This document shows, piece by piece, positions 1,044 to 16,243 of a stretch of DNA of 28,468 nt. The stretch comes from an uncultured Clostridium sp. (lineage in GTDB: Bacteria; Bacillota; Clostridia; Oscillospirales; Acutalibacteraceae). Both the position numbers and the translations under genes were made by a program. The stretch is from assembly GCA_964519325.1 (NCBI GenBank), contig CAZFHQ010000002.1:1-28468 (forward strand), in the 5' to 3' direction. Within the stretch, counting starts at the first letter, position 1. Every line of letters starts with the position of its first letter. Below the pieces are notes generated by a model. The model ran no database searches. It saw only the letters and a program-made list of their open reading frames with translations, and was not told the origin of the DNA.

Positions 1044-1172
1044 GTTGCCTGTTTCACAGCAAGCGCCAGCGCTGCCCACAGGCAAAGTGACGTTTTTGTT
1101 ATGGAAAAGTCACCGTTCTGTAAGATTCCTCCTGTAACATAAAACCATCAAACAGGAAAGGACTGCTCCATT

Positions 1173-1283
1173 ATGAAAAACCCAACTGCTGCGAAAGCCC
1201 GCCGCGGCGCCATGTTCTTTGCCGCTATCCTCGTGTTTTTCGCGTTCATGCCCCAACTTCCGCCCCGCCGCCGTTTCCCATAA
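1173..1283 (+). CDS. Putative 36-aa small peptide MKNPTAAKARRGAMFFAAILVFFAFMPQLPPRRRFP (below ORF-track cutoff)
   Basis: AGGAAAGGA RBS about 10 nt before ATG 1173; basic N-terminus, hydrophobic core, Pro/Arg tail. No homology evidence. Confidence 0.35.
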   Translation: MKNPTAAKARRGAMFFAAILVFFAFMPQLPPRRRFP

Positions 1284-1390: not shown

Positions 1391-2119
1391 ATGAAAAAGA
1401 CAAGGAACAAAAAAACGGGGCATTGGCCCGCTATGCTCTCGGCAGCGTTTCTCTTGCTGACGCTGATCCCCGGCGTCTTTATTTTTTGGGGGTGCGGCGG
1501 CGATAACACACCCGCCGCGCTCCAAGCCTTGCGGCAGCGCAACCCGGAAACCGCCGACTTTGTTGCCGCTTATTCCCAGGAAGCCGGCAAGCGCCATACC
1601 ATCGACCTCTCCGGCGAATACACACCGGGCCAGATCCCCCTGTTTCTCCAGTGGGACATCCGCTGGGGCTATGAGATGTACGGCGGCGACTACCTGGCCC
1701 TGACGGGCTGCGGGCCGACCTGCCTTTCCATGGTAGCCGTCGGGCTGACCGGCAACACCGCTTATGACCCGCTGACAGTGGCCAACTTTGCCGAACAAAA
1801 CGGCTATTACTGCGCCGGCTCCGGTTCCTATTGGAGCTTGATCAGCGAGGGCTGTGGGCAGTTTGGCCTGGCCGCAGAGGAGCTGCCGCTGGACGAAACC
1901 GTCATCCGCTCCCATCTGCAAGGGGGCGATCCCATCATTTGCGCCGTGGGCGCTGGCGATTTCACAACGGACGGACACTTCCTTGTGCTCACCGGCGTCA
2001 ACGCTGACGGTACGATCACCCTCCATGATCCCAACAGCCGCATCAACAGCCAAAAAAGCTGGGACTTGCAGCGCGTTATGAGCCAAATCAGCAACCTGTG
2101 GGCGCTCCGCGCCGTTTAG
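1391..2119 (+). CDS. C39-like (papain-fold) cysteine peptidase lipoprotein, paralog 1
   Basis: AAGGAAGGA RBS before ATG 1391; signal peptide ending in a non-canonical lipobox FWGC; FLQWD, GCGPTC, GHF and HDPNS give the Q/C/H/D catalytic set typical of Peptidase_C39_2-type proteins. Confidence 0.85.
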   Translation: MKKTRNKKTGHWPAMLSAAFLLLTLIPGVFIFWGCGGDNTPAALQALRQRNPETADFVAAYSQEAGKRHTIDLSGEYTPGQIPLFLQWDIRWGYEMYGGDYLALTGCGPTCLSMVAVGLTGNTAYDPLTVANFAEQNGYYCAGSGSYWSLISEGCGQFGLAAEELPLDETVIRSHLQGGDPIICAVGAGDFTTDGHFLVLTGVNADGTITLHDPNSRINSQKSWDLQRVMSQISNLWALRAV

Positions 2120-3104
2120 CTGGAAGCGCCACCAACCCAAGGCCCCCGTCCAGCACCGAACCTGGTACAAGGCGGATGACAAAACTGTAGCAATTTATTC
2201 ATAGTTTCCTAAAAACTATTTGTTATACTTTTGACGAAAGCAGGGCAACCTGTAATAGATAGGGTTGTTCCGTCCCCGCGCCCTACAGCCTCCCAAGGAA
2301 AGGATGACAAACGATGCGACCGACCAACTACAGCAAACCAGGCAGTCCGCGGCTTGCCGCGGCGGTGATCGCCCTGTTGTGCGCCACGATCCCCTGTATC
2401 GTGCTGTTCGCGGGCTGCTCCGGCAGCGGGAACGCCCCCTCCAGTGAAACTGCCGGCAGCGCCGTCGAAAGCTCGCAGGCAGCGATCGACGCCATCAACC
2501 TGAGCAGCCTGCCCGACTCGCTGGTGGAAAAGCTGGAAAAATATCCGGAGACAGCGGAGTTTGCGGCAGCCTATGAGCAAGAGCACAACAAGCATCATGA
2601 AATTGATTTGACCGGCGACTATACGCCGGGAGAGATCCCGTTCCTGCTTCAGTGGGACGTCCGCTGGGGCTATGAGATGTACGGCGAGGACATGATCGGG
2701 ATCAATGGCTGCGGGCCGACCTGCCTCTCCATGGTGCTGGTAGGGCTGACCGGCAACACCGCTTATGACCCGCTGACAGTGGCCAACTTTGCCGAACAAA
2801 ACGGCTACTATTGCAGCGGAGCCGGCTCTTACTTCTCCCTGATGGACAGCGGCGCCGCCCAGTTAGGGCTTTATTCTGAGGAACTGCCGCTGGACGAAAC
2901 CGTTATCCGCTCCCATCTGCAAGGGGGCGACCCAATTATCTGCGTTGTGGGCGAAGGGGACTTCACCACCGGCAGCCATTTCATTGTGCTCACCGGCGTC
3001 AACGCTGACGGTACCATCACCCTCCATGACCCCAACAGCCGCATCAACAGCCAAAAAAGCTGGGACTTGCAGCGCGTTATGAGCCAAATCAGCAACCTGT
3101 GGGC
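1649..3104 (+). repeat. Mosaic direct repeat between the two peptidase genes (constant 1001-bp offset)
   Basis: 1649-1685 vs 2650-2686 (1 mismatch/37), 1706-1734 vs 2707-2735 (1/29), 1742-1806 vs 2743-2807 (0/65), 1883-1929 vs 2884-2930 (1/47), 1983-2103 vs 2984-3104 (2/121), aligned by eye. Confidence 0.9.
2220..2237 (+). promoter_or_regulatory. Extended -10 promoter (TGtTATACT) overlapped by a Rex-like operator
   Basis: TTGTTAT-ACTT-TTGACGA vs clostridial Rex consensus TTGTTAA-N4-TTAACAA (11/14); TGTTATACT at 2221-2229. Confidence 0.4.
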
Positions 3105-3126
3105 TTTCTCCGTTGCGGGGGGCTGA
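2314..3126 (+). CDS. C39-like cysteine peptidase lipoprotein, paralog 2
   Basis: GGAAAGGA RBS; signal peptide with lipobox FAGC and Ser/Ala linker; LLQWD, GCGPTC, SHF, HDPNS. Confidence 0.85.
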   Translation: MRPTNYSKPGSPRLAAAVIALLCATIPCIVLFAGCSGSGNAPSSETAGSAVESSQAAIDAINLSSLPDSLVEKLEKYPETAEFAAAYEQEHNKHHEIDLTGDYTPGEIPFLLQWDVRWGYEMYGEDMIGINGCGPTCLSMVLVGLTGNTAYDPLTVANFAEQNGYYCSGAGSYFSLMDSGAAQLGLYSEELPLDETVIRSHLQGGDPIICVVGEGDFTTGSHFIVLTGVNADGTITLHDPNSRINSQKSWDLQRVMSQISNLWAFSVAGG

Positions 3127-3135
3127 CCGCAAAGC

Positions 3136-3171
3136 AAAAAGACGATGGAAACAGATTCCATCGTCTTTTTT
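3136..3171. terminator. Bidirectional terminator between convergent genes
   Basis: AAAAA-GACGATGGAA-ACAGA-TTCCATCGTC-TTTTTT. Confidence 0.85.
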
Positions 3172-3182
3172 CATTTACAGAA

Positions 3183-3734
3183 TTATTTTTGATAATAGCC
3201 CGGTTTCCCAACGCCCAGGGCCGACCAGTGGGACGCTTGCCAGCGCTCCAGAGCCACGTCCTCGTCGGTGTTCGGTTCTCTGCCGGAATCTCGGACTTCT
3301 TGGATGAGATTCTCCACGTCCTGCGGGGTGCTGTCCCGGTAAAGGCTGATACCCAGGGTGCAGAAGGCGTAACGGTATTCCGCTTGACTGGCGTCAATGT
3401 CGTCGCCGTTTTGCCCATGAAGCAGCTGATAAACCGTGTCCGCGTCTGCCCGCAGGGGATAGATGCCGAACAGCTTAGGCTGGAGGGTACTGTCCGCGCC
3501 GCCGAGAAACTCGATGCATTCCACCCGTCCTTCCTTGTCAAACCGGACGGCAATATCACTGCCCTGATAGAAGATGTGATCCGCATCCTCCGGCTCTCCG
3601 AGGACAGCCCGCACCTGCTCAAATGTGTCGCCGAAGCGCAGGGCGCCGCCCGCCCACCGGATGCCCTCCAGCGGTGTGACGGCCACCGCCTGACAGGACG
3701 GCCGCCCTTTCTTTTTTCGCACTGTCACTTTCAT
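3183..3734 (-). CDS. Hypothetical protein (183 aa)
   Basis: AGGAGG RBS and ATG 3734 overlapping the stop of the upstream gene (ATGA); globular composition with TPLEGI..LRFGDTFEQVRAVLGEP. Family not recognised. Confidence 0.75.
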   Translation of the reverse strand: MKVTVRKKKGRPSCQAVAVTPLEGIRWAGGALRFGDTFEQVRAVLGEPEDADHIFYQGSDIAVRFDKEGRVECIEFLGGADSTLQPKLFGIYPLRADADTVYQLLHGQNGDDIDASQAEYRYAFCTLGISLYRDSTPQDVENLIQEVRDSGREPNTDEDVALERWQASHWSALGVGKPGYYQK

Positions 3735-4153
3735 TTGGCTTCCTCCTGGAACAGCACCTGCTCCACAATTGCCGCCGCGTCCCGCACACAATCCGGACAG
3801 GTGTGCAGCACCGTTCCCGTTTCCACGCCTTTGATCTCCTTACAGATGACAGAGCCGCCTGCCCGCTCGGCAAAAGCGTTCATCAGCGCCTTGGAAAGCC
3901 GGTAGGTGCTGCCCTTGCTGTCCGGCTGTTCCAGGCGCGCGCTGCTGTTCTGCAGGCCGGCCAGCACACAGGCGGCGGCAATCGCCCCGCAGGTACCCTC
4001 CATATTGCCCATGCCCAAGCCAAGCCCCTCGGTCAGGCGGAACATGGTTGCTTCATCAAGGCCGACCAGGTCACAATAAGTGCAGGCCACCGCCTGCGCG
4101 CAGTTGTAGCCCTGTTTGTGCCTTTGCACAGCAGCTTCCACTCTGGTTTTCAT
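3731..4153 (-). CDS. C_GCAxxG_C_C family putative redox-active protein
   Basis: AAGGAGGAG RBS; YNCAQAV, GTCGAIAAA, VICKEI, CPDCV motifs. Confidence 0.85.
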   Translation of the reverse strand: MKTRVEAAVQRHKQGYNCAQAVACTYCDLVGLDEATMFRLTEGLGLGMGNMEGTCGAIAAACVLAGLQNSSARLEQPDSKGSTYRLSKALMNAFAERAGGSVICKEIKGVETGTVLHTCPDCVRDAAAIVEQVLFQEEAK

Positions 4154-4178
4154 GGTGATCTCCTCCTTTTCCCGCTGC

Positions 4179-4203
4179 AAAAACAGCCGGACGATCGTCC
4201 GGC
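4179..4203 (-). terminator. Likely terminator after pyrG
   Basis: Perfect palindrome GCCGGACGATCGTCCGGC (4186-4203) followed by TGTTTTT on the minus strand. Confidence 0.6.
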
Positions 4204-11562: not shown

Positions 11563-12117
11563 ATGGAACTTGACAACACCCCGCTGTATTTGCAGTTTTA
11601 TAACGCGATGCTGCGGCTGAAGCGCGTCACCAGGCGGATCCCCCCGCCTCGCAAGGGGATCTCCCATTTTGAGTTCATGTGCCTCAACGTGATCTCCAAT
11701 TACACAAGCGAGCACCCTGAGCTGCCGGGCATCAAGGCGTCCCTGCTCAGCGACATCACCCAGACCTCCCGGCCGGCGATCTCCCAGCACATCAATATTC
11801 TGGAAGAAAAAGGGCTGATCTGCCGCCGCGCATCGCGCAGCGACCGGAGGGTCACTTACCTTTGCCTGACGGAATCCGCCGGCGATTTCCTGGCGGGGAT
11901 GGAGGAAGACGCCATGCGCAATTTTCGGGTCATCTGCGACCAGCTTGGCCAGGAGGACACCCGCAAGGCCATTGCCATAGTGGCTAAGGTGTCCCGAATC
12001 ATCCTCTCCTGCTCCGCGCGGGAACCGGCCCAGCAGCCCCAGGCTGCCGCCGATGACACGTCCCGCACATCCGCGGACAACACAATACCCGAAAGAAAGG
12101 AAACCCTGTTGCAATGA
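11563..12117 (+). CDS. MarR family transcriptional regulator
   Basis: AAAGGAAG RBS before ATG 11563; ASLLSDITQTSRPAISQHINILEEKGLI..R..S.SDRRVTYLCLT wing motif. Confidence 0.85.
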   Translation: MELDNTPLYLQFYNAMLRLKRVTRRIPPPRKGISHFEFMCLNVISNYTSEHPELPGIKASLLSDITQTSRPAISQHINILEEKGLICRRASRSDRRVTYLCLTESAGDFLAGMEEDAMRNFRVICDQLGQEDTRKAIAIVAKVSRIILSCSAREPAQQPQAAADDTSRTSADNTIPERKETLLQ

Positions 12118-14354
12118 TAAAAGTTCTGCGATATTTAAAACCCCATCTTCTGTCGCTGATCGCAGCCATCCTGCTGATCGCCTGCACTGTTGTGGGCGAC
12201 CTGAGCCTGCCCACGCTCATGTCCAACATCATCAGCGTTGGCATCCAGCAAAGCGGCGTGGAGGACGCCGCGCCGGAGGCGGTCAGCGCCAACGGCTACG
12301 CGCTGATGACAACCTTTATGAGCGAAGAAGAACGCCAGCTCACAGCGGACAGCTACACCCTGGTGCAGGCTGACCCCAACAACAGCCTGGCGCAGAAATA
12401 TCCGCTGCTGGCCAGCCAGGACGTCTACATCCGCAAGGAGGTAGACAGCAATACGCTGGCGCGGCTTGACACTGCCTTTGGCGCTGCCACCATGACGTTC
12501 TATACCATTGCGGAGGAACAGTCCGCGCAGCAGGACGGCGCCGCAGAGGGTGCCTCTGCCGCGGAAGGGGAGGATACGGAAACCGCTTCCATTCCGTTAG
12601 ACACGATCTACCAGTCTCTGCCCATGCTGCAGCAAATCCCCCAGGCGCAAATCGACGCCGTGCGGGAGTCTGCCGCCTCCTCGCAGGAAACGCTCCAGGA
12701 ACAAATGGGCATTGCCATGGCAAAGAGCTTTTATGAGGAGCTTGGCATGGACACCGGCGCCATGCAGATGCGCTACATCATCTACGTCGGCGCTATCATG
12801 CTTGCCCTGACCCTGCTCAGCGGCGTGGCTACGGTCTTTGTATCCCTGCTCTCCTCCCGCATTGCCGCCGGCGTGGCCCGCGCCCTGCGCCGCGACGTGT
12901 TCCACAAGGTGAGCAACTTCTCCAACCATGAGTTCGATACCTTCTCCACCGCGTCCCTTATCACCCGCACCACCAACGACATCACCCAGGTGCAGATGAT
13001 GCTGACCATGGGCATCCGTCTGGCGTTTCAGGCGCCGCTCACCAGCATTGGCGGCGTGGTAATGGCGCTGAATAAAAGCGTTTCCCTCGGCTGGGTCATC
13101 GCGGTGTCCGTGCTGACGCTGCTGTGCCTGATCGGCGTTGTGTTTGTGATCGCCATGCCAAGGTTCACCAAGATGCAGAAGCTGGTTGACCGGATGAACC
13201 TGGTCGCCAGAGAGAACCTCAGCGGCATCATGGTCATCCGCGCTTTTGACAATGAAGAGTTTGAAAAAGGCCGCTACGATGTGGCCAACCAGAACCTGGC
13301 CAGCAACCAGCTGTTTGTGAACCGGCTGATGGTCACCCTGATGCCGGCCATGATGATCATTATGAACCTGACCTCGCTGACCATCGTATGGGTCGGCGCC
13401 CATCGAATTGCCGAGTCCGCCATGCAGATCGGCGATATGATCGCCTTTATGCAATATTCCATGCAGATCATCCTGTCCTTCCTGCTGATCGCCATGATGT
13501 TCATCCTGGTACCCCGCGCGGCTGTTTCCGCCAAGCGGATCCAGGAGGTGCTGGAAACAGAAAGCTCGGTGAAGGACCCTGCCCAGCCCGTCCCCTTTGA
13601 CGAGGCAAAAGCCGGCCTGGTAGAATTCCGGGACGTTTCCTTCCGTTACGGCGACGCCGACAACGATGTGATCGAGCACATTACCTTTACCGCGGAGCCG
13701 GGTAAAACCACCGCCTTCATCGGCGCTACCGGCTCCGGCAAGTCCACCCTGGTCAACCTGATCCCCCGGTTCTATGACTGCACGGAAGGCCAGGTCCTGG
13801 TCAACGGCGCAGATGTGCGGCAGGTTCGGCAGCACGACCTGCGGGAGCGCATTGGTTATGTGCCGCAAAAGGGTATCCTCCACAAAGGCACCATCGCCAG
13901 CAATATCGGCTACGGCGCGCCAAACGCCACCCGGGAGGACCTGAATACCGCCGCGGAGGTTGCCCAGGCCATGGACTTTATCAGCAAAAAAGAGAACGGC
14001 ATGGACAGCGAGATCGCTGCCGGCGGCACCAATGTTTCCGGCGGGCAGAAGCAGCGCCTCTCCATTGCCCGCGCTTTGGCGAAAAAGCCGGACGTCTATA
14101 TTTTTGACGACAGCTTTTCCGCGCTGGACTTCAAGACAGACGCCGCGCTGCGCCACGCCCTCAAGGGTTACACCGGCCACGCCACCGTTCTGATCGTCGC
14201 CCAGCGGGTCGGCACCATTTTGAACGCCGACCAGATCATCGTACTGGATCAAGGGAAAATTGCAGGCAAAGGCACCCACGCGGAGCTGCTCCGAACCTGC
14301 CCGGTCTATTATGAGATCGCTTCCTCCCAGCTGACAAAGGAGGAATTAGCATGA
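12114..14354 (+). CDS. Heterodimeric ABC exporter subunit A (TMD+NBD, degenerate site, TM287-like)
   Basis: Walker A GATGSGKST, signature VSGGQ, Walker B YIFDD (D for E), switch VAQR (Q for H); FSTASLITRTTND coupling helix. Confidence 0.93.
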   Translation: MIKVLRYLKPHLLSLIAAILLIACTVVGDLSLPTLMSNIISVGIQQSGVEDAAPEAVSANGYALMTTFMSEEERQLTADSYTLVQADPNNSLAQKYPLLASQDVYIRKEVDSNTLARLDTAFGAATMTFYTIAEEQSAQQDGAAEGASAAEGEDTETASIPLDTIYQSLPMLQQIPQAQIDAVRESAASSQETLQEQMGIAMAKSFYEELGMDTGAMQMRYIIYVGAIMLALTLLSGVATVFVSLLSSRIAAGVARALRRDVFHKVSNFSNHEFDTFSTASLITRTTNDITQVQMMLTMGIRLAFQAPLTSIGGVVMALNKSVSLGWVIAVSVLTLLCLIGVVFVIAMPRFTKMQKLVDRMNLVARENLSGIMVIRAFDNEEFEKGRYDVANQNLASNQLFVNRLMVTLMPAMMIIMNLTSLTIVWVGAHRIAESAMQIGDMIAFMQYSMQIILSFLLIAMMFILVPRAAVSAKRIQEVLETESSVKDPAQPVPFDEAKAGLVEFRDVSFRYGDADNDVIEHITFTAEPGKTTAFIGATGSGKSTLVNLIPRFYDCTEGQVLVNGADVRQVRQHDLRERIGYVPQKGILHKGTIASNIGYGAPNATREDLNTAAEVAQAMDFISKKENGMDSEIAAGGTNVSGGQKQRLSIARALAKKPDVYIFDDSFSALDFKTDAALRHALKGYTGHATVLIVAQRVGTILNADQIIVLDQGKIAGKGTHAELLRTCPVYYEIASSQLTKEELA

Positions 14355-16243
14355 GTATGAATCAACCCACAACGAACCGCCCAAGAGGGTCGCGCATGGG
14401 AGGCCCGATGCGGGGGCCTGGCGGCCCAAAGGCCAAGAACGCCAAGGGCGCGCTGCTCCGGCTGCTCCGGTATATCTCCCGCTACAAATTCACGATCCTG
14501 CTGGTCATGTTGTTTGCGGTCATTTCCACCGTTTTCAATATTATCGGCCCAAAGCTCCTGGGCCAGGCTACCACCACACTGGCGGAAGGCATTTCCAGCA
14601 TGGTGTCCGGCACCGGCGGCATCGACTTTGATACCATCGGCCTGCTTATGGTGATCCTCATTTGCCTGTATTGCGCCAGCGCCGCTTTCTCCTACCTGCA
14701 GGGCTACTTTATGTCCAAGGTCTCCATGCGGGTCACCTATGGCCTGCGCAAGGATATTTCCAACAAAATGCACCGCCTGCCGTTCCAGTATTACGACGGC
14801 ACCACCACCGGCGAGATCCTCTCCTATATCACCAACGACGTGGACGCGATCAACCAGAGCTTAAACCAAAGCCTGACCCAGATCATCACCTCTGTGACGA
14901 CGCTGGCCGGCATCCTGATCATGATGTTCTCCATCCACTGGGTACTCGCGCTGGCCACCCTGTGCATCATTCCCGTTTCCATGGTGCTGATCCTGCTGAT
15001 CGCCAAAATCTCGCAAAAGTACTTTAAGGCCCAGCAGGAATATTTGGGCCATGTGAACGGCCATGTGGAGGAGATGTATTCCAGCCACGTTGTCGTCAAG
15101 GCCTATAACGGGGAGGCCCGCTCTGAACAGACCTTCTCCAAATACAATGACACCCTGTATAAATCCGCCTGGAAATCCCAGTTCCTCTCCAGCCTGATGA
15201 TGCCGATCATGACCTTTGTGGGCAACCTGGGTTATGTGGTCGTGTGCATCCTGGGCGGCTACCTGGCGATTTCCGGCTCCATCTCCATTGGCGATATCCA
15301 GGCATTCCTCCAATATGTCCGGCAGTTCAACCAGCCGATCACCCAGGTGGCGCAGATCTCCAACATCATCCAGCAGACAGCCGCCGCCTCTGAGCGTGTC
15401 TTTGATTTTCTGGAAACGCCGGAGGAGATCCCGGACACCGACGCCCCGATACGGCTGGCCCGCGGCAGCGACCAGAACGGGATCGCCATAAAGGGCAGCG
15501 TAGAGTTTGACCATGTCCGCTTCGGCTACAATCCGGAACGCATCGTCATCAAGGACTTCTCCGCCAGCGTAAGCCCTGGCCAGAAGATCGCCATTGTCGG
15601 CCCGACCGGCGCCGGCAAAACCACCATGATCAAGCTGCTGATGCGGTTCTATGATGTAACCGGCGGCGCGATCCGCATCGACGGCCACGATATCCGGGAC
15701 TTCACCCGGGACGACCTGCGCTCCCTCTTTGGCATGGTGCTCCAGGACACCTGGCTCTACAACGCCTCCATCAAAGAGAATATCCGCTACGGCAAGCTGG
15801 ACGCCACCGATGAGGAGATCTACGCCGCGGCCAAAGCCGCCCAGGTGGATCACTTTGTCCACACCCTGCCCAACGGCTATGAGATGGAGCTGAACGAGGA
15901 CGCAAGCAATGTCTCCCAGGGGCAAAAGCAGCTGCTCACCATCGCCCGTGCTTTTCTGGCGAACCCGCAGATCCTGATCCTCGACGAGGCGACCAGCTCT
16001 GTCGACACCCGAACAGAAATCCTCATCCAAAAGGCCATGGATAACCTGATGAAGGACCGGACCAGCTTTGTTATCGCCCACCGGCTGTCCACCGTCCGCA
16101 ACGCCAACCTGATCCTTGTCATGCGGGACGGCGACATTGTGGAGCAGGGCAGCCACGACACACTGATGGAGCAGGGCGGCTTCTACGCTACCCTCTACAA
16201 CAGCCAGTTTGAGCCGGAAGAAGAGATTGCCGACAACCTGTGA
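14351..16243 (+). CDS. Heterodimeric ABC exporter subunit B (TMD+NBD, consensus site, TM288-like)
   Basis: Walker A GPTGAGKTT, non-canonical signature VSQGQ, Walker B ILILDE, IAHR switch; start overlaps the stop of subunit A. Confidence 0.93.
   Translation: MSMNQPTTNRPRGSRMGGPMRGPGGPKAKNAKGALLRLLRYISRYKFTILLVMLFAVISTVFNIIGPKLLGQATTTLAEGISSMVSGTGGIDFDTIGLLMVILICLYCASAAFSYLQGYFMSKVSMRVTYGLRKDISNKMHRLPFQYYDGTTTGEILSYITNDVDAINQSLNQSLTQIITSVTTLAGILIMMFSIHWVLALATLCIIPVSMVLILLIAKISQKYFKAQQEYLGHVNGHVEEMYSSHVVVKAYNGEARSEQTFSKYNDTLYKSAWKSQFLSSLMMPIMTFVGNLGYVVVCILGGYLAISGSISIGDIQAFLQYVRQFNQPITQVAQISNIIQQTAAASERVFDFLETPEEIPDTDAPIRLARGSDQNGIAIKGSVEFDHVRFGYNPERIVIKDFSASVSPGQKIAIVGPTGAGKTTMIKLLMRFYDVTGGAIRIDGHDIRDFTRDDLRSLFGMVLQDTWLYNASIKENIRYGKLDATDEEIYAAAKAAQVDHFVHTLPNGYEMELNEDASNVSQGQKQLLTIARAFLANPQILILDEATSSVDTRTEILIQKAMDNLMKDRTSFVIAHRLSTVRNANLILVMRDGDIVEQGSHDTLMEQGGFYATLYNSQFEPEEEIADNL

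Follow-up and report, generated by a model that had tools for sequence, protein, structure and literature searches.

Gene conversion between paralogues is known from human RHD/RHCE, from bacterial tufA/tufB and from Helicobacter babA/babB, and the models of Teshima and Innan reportedly deal with conversion of this kind in the presence of divergence islands. Islands of divergence under interlocus gene conversion have been described for the GOT1 paralogues of Tigriopus (PMC3728101), and modelling of HMA4 in Arabidopsis halleri likewise combines interlocus conversion with divergence islands (bioRxiv 10.1101/2025.10.29.685298). Here we describe two neighbouring genes, A and B, that encode predicted exported cysteine peptidases of the Peptidase_C39_2 family and lie in a 28,468-nucleotide stretch (hereafter the window) of contig CAZFHQ010000002.1 from an uncultured Clostridium sp., a gut-type spore-forming bacterium. 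As in the known cases, stretches of near identity, also at synonymous sites, alternate with old divergent ones, the paralogues are closer to each other than to their orthologues in the converted tracts only, and the islands coincide with paralogue-specific residues. The A/B pair differs in being bacterial and of the C39_2 family, and in that its islands are unusually short (16-108 nt), with several of them in a domain of 190 codons. The pair is a clear but ordinary instance of gene conversion between duplicates, that is, of a known phenomenon with no new mechanism.

The C39_2 family was classified in PMC10318531, where its members are described as single-domain peptidases bearing extra decorations "probably for substrate specificity", and the domain is also found in endolysins of gut phages (bioRxiv 10.64898/2026.04.25.720813). 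A and B share with this family, of which 3erv and PeiR (8z4h) are solved structures, the hidden Markov model, the Gln-Cys-His-Asp set and the papain-like fold, together with extra decorations relative to the transporter-borne C39 domains. The clostridial subfamily to which they belong differs by a predicted N-terminal membrane or lipid anchor and by a conserved helical linker (PET..FV..Y motif), and we know of no member of it with a known substrate or activity. The classical C39 domains of PCAT/AMS exporters (PF03412; ComA, PCAT1, LahT) belong to the same clan and have the same fold, with the Cys at the start of a helix and followed by Gly, and with the His/Asp pair. Gln and Cys are separated by ~6 residues in C39 peptidases and by ~20 residues in A and B, which also differ from the classical domains in standing alone, without fusion to an ATP-binding cassette (ABC) exporter, in having a signal sequence of their own and in adjoining no bacteriocin cluster. 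Another likeness is to tandem arrays of secreted proteases in which variable loops surround a constant catalytic core, such as the spl operon of Staphylococcus aureus, where exported protease paralogues stand side by side on a common scaffold and differ mainly beside their catalytic residues; A and B are only two copies, are of another catalytic class, and owe their shared scaffold to recent conversion and not to conservation alone.

A mosaic of near-identical and divergent blocks

From about position 1541 to 2107, the catalytic domain of A aligns with that of B without gaps and in codon phase at a constant offset of 1001 bp, with 116 differences over 567 nt. Five near-identical blocks (H1 to H5) alternate with divergent ones (D1 to D5), as listed in Table 1. 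Raw divergence is 1.4% in H versus 40% in D, and at third codon positions 3% versus 68%. Synonymous divergence (dS) is 0.125 and non-synonymous divergence (dN) 0.013 in H, whereas in D dS is saturated and dN reaches 0.33 (Nei-Gojobori). The longest exact A-B repeat, a run of 74 nt at 2030-2103, falls in H5, and the 16 nt of D3 are centred on one paralogue-specific codon, GCC for Ala116 in A and CTG for Leu in B. When positions were shuffled over all sites, P was below 5e-5 for the longest run as well as for the sum of squared runs. The mosaic is present at synonymous sites as well, since shuffling of 144 conserved degenerate codons (42 synonymous differences) gave P values of 0.00025 (sum of squares) and 0.016 (longest run). 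The 68% third-position divergence in D was considered as a sign of selection for divergence and rejected, since it fits an additive tree with longer branches in the window lineage.

A sequence-only reading of the window had described this pattern as gene conversion within an old pair. The offset without indels, the blocks of 97-100% identity and the synonymous differences and peptide segments that it quoted are all present, and the signal and linker regions, which it called unrelated, are indeed unalignable between A and B. Its five-block layout holds, but the second of its blocks is split by the 16 divergent nucleotides at 1726-1741. Because dS is not uniform along the genes, the conversion reading is not refuted on that count. 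The mosaic was read from the assembly sequence of a metagenome-assembled genome (MAG; 1.27 Mb, 178 contigs, 70% complete), in which the 28-kb contig runs through both genes, and a whole-genome family search found exactly two Peptidase_C39_2 genes in the assembled genome, namely A and B.

The same pair in a second species and the order of events

In the database, A is closest to P0002 (68% identity) and B to P0014 (62%), hereafter Ax and Bx of species X. Their contigs overlap by 762 identical bases and were joined into a tandem locus with the A-type gene followed by the B-type gene, and after Bx come the same convergent hypothetical and C_GCAxxG genes as in the window. The complete arrangement is also found on a single contig in an independent ENA scaffold, which matches the joined locus at 99.6% identity. 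Judged by the flanking genes, X is the nearest available relative, with PyrG 90% identical versus 85% for the same-genus genome G013. In relatives further away, the Rex-to-PyrG locus holds just one gene of the family. Searches for further species with the pair returned, at the protein level, only one B-type cluster (P0014/P0219) and, in a scan of genome contigs, one distant Lachnospiraceae match (53% identity). Among 40 related genomes, a close homologue was found only in G013, as a single copy. A homologue of B was lacking in 12 of the 14 same-genus genomes searched.

The A-B pair of X agrees with that of the window in order and synteny, which places the duplication before the species split; the two pairs also match in their paralogue-specific N-termini, linkers and D-block residues. 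In the H blocks, every between-species or X-internal pair shows a dS of 0.56-0.90 and a divergence of 22-24%, and family-wide column entropy is equal in H (1.39) and D (1.40), so that constraint on the DNA or the protein cannot explain the identity of A and B there. In X, the mosaic is not significant, with a longest Ax-Bx run of 22 nt (P = 0.11) and a sum of squares at P = 0.03, and in the H regions the Ax-Bx distance is no greater than the distance between orthologues. This fits homogenisation until about the species split, followed by renewed conversion in the window lineage only. Duplication thus came before speciation and speciation before the conversion seen in the window; an old duplication undergoing repeated conversion had been proposed from the window alone.

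The quartet A, B, Ax and Bx shows a change of grouping along the genes; for telling "by genome" from "by paralogue", it draws on a single further species (two strains) and on outgroups. Sites with A=Ax and B=Bx number 24 and are clustered in D (linker, before Cys, middle segment, before His), and the 31 sites with A=B and Ax=Bx are clustered in H, above all at the C-terminus. Protein trees of each partition were built from the four genes and 20 further homologues, and alternative groupings were compared by approximately unbiased (AU) tests. In the D partition, B+Bx is supported at 99/95 and A+Ax is present in the best tree; a tree constrained to A+B is worse by 21 log-likelihood units and is rejected (AU 0.036). 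For H, support for A+B is 95/93; the AU test rejects A+Ax (0.005) and leaves B+Bx on the borderline (0.052). The trees thus flip as the conversion reading had predicted, with D grouping by paralogue and H by genome. As to the direction of transfer, the common A=B sequence is equally far from Ax and Bx in every H block. A similarity between A and Bx at 1610-1675 (6 differences in 66 nt) was discarded as no outlier, the minima of other pairs being 7-9.

Paralogue-specific residues and rival explanations

We consider it likely that A and B were duplicated in tandem together with their promoter before the split from X, that conversion then acted in the window lineage, and that the islands were kept for function. 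A degenerate copy of the promoter-like element before B indicates that the promoter was duplicated along with the gene. Since the split, interlocus gene conversion by non-reciprocal homologous recombination would have overwritten ~290 nt of catalytic-domain DNA in five blocks, rendering the scaffolds of A and B almost identical. Four to five short islands would have escaped, at the linker-domain junction, the seven residues before Cys, one helix residue, the middle loop/helix and the loop before His. They would persist since conversion there would erase a functional difference between A and B, most likely in substrate preference, with cell-wall peptides and exported proteins as the leading candidate substrates.

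The residues in the islands bear on this last step. In the papain fold, the substrate cleft is lined by three segments, one ahead of the nucleophile, one an L-domain loop and one preceding the His, and the D blocks fall on the chain positions that such segments would occupy. Paralogue-specific residues common to both species are N51Y, D56E, A103G, L104I, T105N, A116L, W148F, A155C, L158F, P188E and Gly194. Those in D2 (A103G, L104I, T105N) are retained in both species; W148F is specific to B and Bx at a position that is Trp in 78 of 78 relatives; and A155C and L158F are specific to A and Ax. At 188 and 194, B and Bx both retain Glu and Gly, whereas A has Ala and Asp, and Ax has Pro and Thr, Pro being the family consensus at 188. 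The positions of W148F, A103G, P188E, A155C and L158F are 79-100% conserved in the 78 relatives, and each of these changes is shared with the X orthologue; G195S in D5 is found in window B only. In the segments directly ahead of Cys107 and His196, 16 residues in all, differences between the paralogues number 9/16 for the window and 8/16 for X, versus 16% and 28% elsewhere, and those between orthologues only 3/16 and 4/16. Paralogue-specific residues are twice as dense in these segments. Across the family these 16 positions are less variable than the average (entropy 1.04 versus 1.43). The dN/dS of the D blocks between A and Ax is about 0.15. Together these data suggest, without being decisive, that selection holds two functions in A and B.

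Several points weigh against this explanation. The grouping of A with B in H and the Fisher test in the window are partly circular since the blocks were defined from A-B identity, and the sites free of this circularity divide 17:8 between paralogue and crossed patterns (binomial P = 0.11). The AU values of 0.036 and 0.052 are marginal, the tree flip rests on a single quartet plus outgroups, with one other species carrying the pair, and the host genome is a fragmented, incomplete MAG. The windows flanking Cys and His were picked after seeing the data, the enrichment of paralogue differences near these residues is marginal in X taken alone (P = 0.085), and it is chain position and general knowledge of papain folds, not measured distances, that place the islands near the cleft. 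In X, moreover, the paralogues diverge by 22% in the regions matching H versus 32% in D, and of the five longest runs of identity between Ax and Bx, three (22, 14 and 11 nt) fall within H blocks and a fourth on a block boundary. Since the H regions of X are already the more similar ones, neutral conversion limited by homology fits too: the islands would carry too many mismatches to permit strand exchange or the survival of a heteroduplex, and the two enzymes could be functionally redundant. We find this somewhat unlikely, given that the residues specific to each paralogue persist in both species despite saturation at synonymous sites, that W148F and P188E replace strongly conserved family residues, and that near Cys and His the paralogues differ at half of the positions at which orthologues mostly agree. 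Neutral conversion also has to accommodate islands of 16-20 nt that sit between converted blocks and are centred on paralogue-specific codons, and D columns whose family entropy is no higher. The earlier claim that selection keeps two specificities is plausible, favoured by residues that both species keep and that are enriched ahead of Cys107 and His196.

The mosaic alone cannot say which class of blocks is older, and the H blocks might instead give the true, young age of a recent duplication, the D blocks coming from foreign alleles. Such a history is highly improbable. X has the same genes in the same order, with the same paralogue-specific N-termini, linkers and D residues; five imports and the whole signal and linker region would be needed, each from a B-type donor; and among 15 billion proteins there is no near-identical donor, the window proteins being singletons and the best B-type match reaching 62%. 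The GC content at third codon positions of the D blocks (0.69-0.74) also lies within that of neighbouring genes (0.69-0.80). The shared N-termini and the lack of a close donor make this history unparsimonious. Only a very slim chance is left to an assembly or polishing artefact, in which mixed reads of the two copies would have created false identical blocks, even though the source is a fragmented MAG: at a true divergence of ~22%, as in X, reads map uniquely and graphs stay unmerged, so that the copies would not collapse; the edges of the H blocks are sharp beside segments that differ by 30-65%; four single differences are scattered inside the blocks, as expected after real conversion; and the longest exact repeat, 74 nt, can be traversed by reads or large k-mers in a contig that spans both genes. 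Programmed diversification, in which the genes would swap specificity cassettes to yield variant surface proteases as in antigenic-variation loci, takes up the exchange of specificity cassettes that had been offered as an alternative. In its favour, the divergent segments are discrete short stretches between tracts of identical DNA that could guide exchange. This proposal is very unlikely and we do not retain it: there are only two full-length copies and no silent cassettes in the assembled, 70%-complete genome, the D blocks remain tied to their respective paralogues in the two species, the crossed site patterns are the minority (8 versus 17) with no outlier window, and the two X strains, 99.6% identical, are collinear without reshuffling.

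A further idea, which we regard as rather doubtful, builds on the conversion of an old pair and holds that conversion is itself useful: the common scaffold would co-evolve in both copies (e.g. for a shared docking site or partner at the cell surface) while selection guards three to five very short cleft-lining islands that determine two distinct substrate specificities. If true, the pair would be a natural map of specificity determinants in the uncharacterised clostridial C39_2 subfamily.

Predicted peptidases and their locus

A and B are best described as extracytoplasmic papain-fold cysteine peptidases of the Peptidase_C39_2 family with a Gln-Cys-His-Asp set, their peptidase activity being predicted from sequence and model. 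Their PF13529 scores are 45.7 bits (A) and 50.5 bits (B), both above the Pfam gathering threshold of 24 bits; neither protein has a family match in NCBIfam, neither matches the PF03412 profile at E <= 0.01, and no wall-binding domain was found in them by Pfam. Q87, C107, H196 and D213 of A do not vary across 82 aligned homologues. From these 82 homologues, AlphaFold2 gave a confident model of A (predicted local distance difference test score, pLDDT, 93.6) that shows a membrane helix at 12-33, a helical linker and a papain-like core, in which Cys107 starts the helix 107-120, His196 opens the strand 196-203 and Asp213 ends the strand 209-213. A Foldseek search with this model returned PeiR first (E 1e-6, template modelling (TM) score 0.46-0.49), followed by a papain-like toxin, the C39 domains of PCAT1, ComA and LahT, and then 3erv of Bacillus anthracis, with E values from 1e-6 to 1e-3. 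C107 aligns with Cys90 of PeiR, a pseudomurein endoisopeptidase, the residue that is mutated in entry 8z4n; PeiR is the best solved match to A but a weak one (sequence E 3e-4, TM about 0.47). As a working guess held with low confidence, A and B might cleave cell-wall peptides or exported proteins outside the cytoplasm. In window B, Ser221 (codon 2974-2976, equivalent to Gly195 of A) replaces the Gly directly before the catalytic His; this Gly is invariant in 78 relatives and retained in Bx, Ser occurring in window B alone, a change that could alter or weaken catalysis by B.

Both proteins are best described as exported by their own signal sequence and as membrane- or lipid-anchored, judging by their N-termini. 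B and 10 orthologues fit a PS51257-type lipobox. A and Ax read FWGC, and the Trp at -2 places them outside the strict PS51257 pattern. The Cys is conserved in the 15 closest orthologues and absent from more distant family members. The term "lipoproteins" used for the pair is thus plausible, fitting B by its lipobox and A, which misses the strict pattern, by the conservation of its Cys. The start of A at 1391 is backed by a AGGAAGGA ribosome-binding site (RBS) and by the 242-aa orthologue P0002.

Table 1. Features of the A/B locus. Positions are those of the window unless another locus is named; partner positions are the equivalent positions in gene B.
Feature	Position	Partner position	Strand	Details
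Promoter/operator-like element	1086..1172		+	Inverted repeat GTGAC-N17-GTCAC, -35-like CTGTAA, -10-like TAACAT, RBS AGGAAAGGA; from blastn and alignment
Copies of this element at related loci	L024 190-286; L020 3570-3603; L023 1335-1374; L019 8506-8584 and 9294-9353			
36-codon hydrophobic open reading frame (ORF)	1173..1283		+	Outside the mosaic
Gene A	1391..2119		+	242 aa; N-terminal membrane helix with conserved Cys, helical linker, Peptidase_C39_2 papain-fold domain (Pfam PF13529)
Predicted catalytic codons of A	1649-1651; 1709-1711; 1976-1978; 2027-2029			Gln87; Cys107; His196; Asp213
D1, divergent	1541..1648	2542-2649	+	Linker end and domain start; 40 of 108 nt differ
H1, identical (converted)	1649..1685	2650-2686	+	Gln87 region; 37 nt, 1 mismatch
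D2, divergent	1686..1705		+	Seven codons before Cys107: GDYLALT (A) vs EDMIGIN (B)
H2, identical (converted)	1706..1725	2707-2726	+	Catalytic Cys107; 20 nt, 0 mismatches
D3, divergent mini-block	1726..1741		+	Catalytic helix; Ala116 (A, Ax) vs Leu (B, Bx)
H3, identical (converted)	1742..1806	2743-2807	+	65 nt, 0 mismatches
D4, divergent	1807..1882		+	Middle loop and helices
H4, identical (converted)	1883..1929	2884-2930	+	47 nt, 1 mismatch
D5, divergent	1930..1982		+	Strand and loop before catalytic His196
H5, identical (converted)	1983..2103	2984-3104	+	Asp213 and C-terminal strands; 121 nt, 2 mismatches
A-B intergenic region	2120..2313		+	Degenerate copy of the promoter-like element and RBS of B
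Gene B	2314..3126		+	270 aa; lipobox signal peptide, linker 26 aa longer than that of A, Peptidase_C39_2 domain (Pfam PF13529)
Predicted catalytic codons of B	2650-2652; 2710-2712; 2977-2979; 3028-3030			Gln113; Cys133; His222; Asp239
Hairpin 3' of gene B, likely terminator	3141..3172		.	GACGATGGAA ... TTCCATCGTC then a T-run; read from the sequence, absent from the consensus scan

A conserved element of ~95 nt (window 1086-1180) precedes the C39 genes at all orthologous loci, with degenerate copies upstream of B and Bx, and it looks like a shared promoter with an operator for some regulator. An Rfam search of 950-2400 gave sub-threshold chance matches only. The 36-codon ORF that follows the element starts at the ATG that serves as the peptidase start codon in relatives, gene A beginning 107 nt later with its own RBS, and tblastn found no homologue of this ORF in related loci. 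It looks like a relic or a new leader ORF, arisen from a 218-nt insertion or a 5' rearrangement, rather than a conserved substrate gene. The candidate considered for an adjacent gene of a double-glycine leader peptide was this 36-aa ORF.

The neighbours are chromosomal housekeeping genes, encoding a protein of the isocitrate/isopropylmalate dehydrogenase family, Rex, a C_GCAxxG protein, PyrG, SpoIIE and PurL. In the nearest ABC exporter genes (12114-16243), 9 kb away, no C39 domain was found at E <= 1e-5. Downstream of B, a convergent hypothetical gene (3183-3791, minus strand) has no Pfam family and only 38-42% identity among relatives. Of five loci examined, four have it in synteny with the peptidase genes and one, the P0009 locus, lacks it. 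Because its longest ORF and the C_GCAxxG gene (3731-4180, minus strand) share 61 nt, its true start probably lies further downstream. The hairpin at 3141-3172 is likely a terminator shared by this gene and B. In G013, a further, highly dissimilar Peptidase_C39_2 gene (229 aa, Pfam E 1e-25; L019 = G013:C33, 8583-9272, minus strand) stands between Rex and the A/B-family gene and is preceded by the same conserved element, indicating that the Rex-PyrG locus gained C39-like genes more than once.

The A/B pair offers a clean bacterial case of islands surviving conversion, with the pair of the sister species, in which the mosaic is not significant, as a control. The islands single out about a dozen candidate specificity residues, including W148F, A103G/L104I/T105N, P188E, A155C and L158F. 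These candidates concern a widespread family of exported cysteine peptidases of gut Clostridia, and their practical value is modest.

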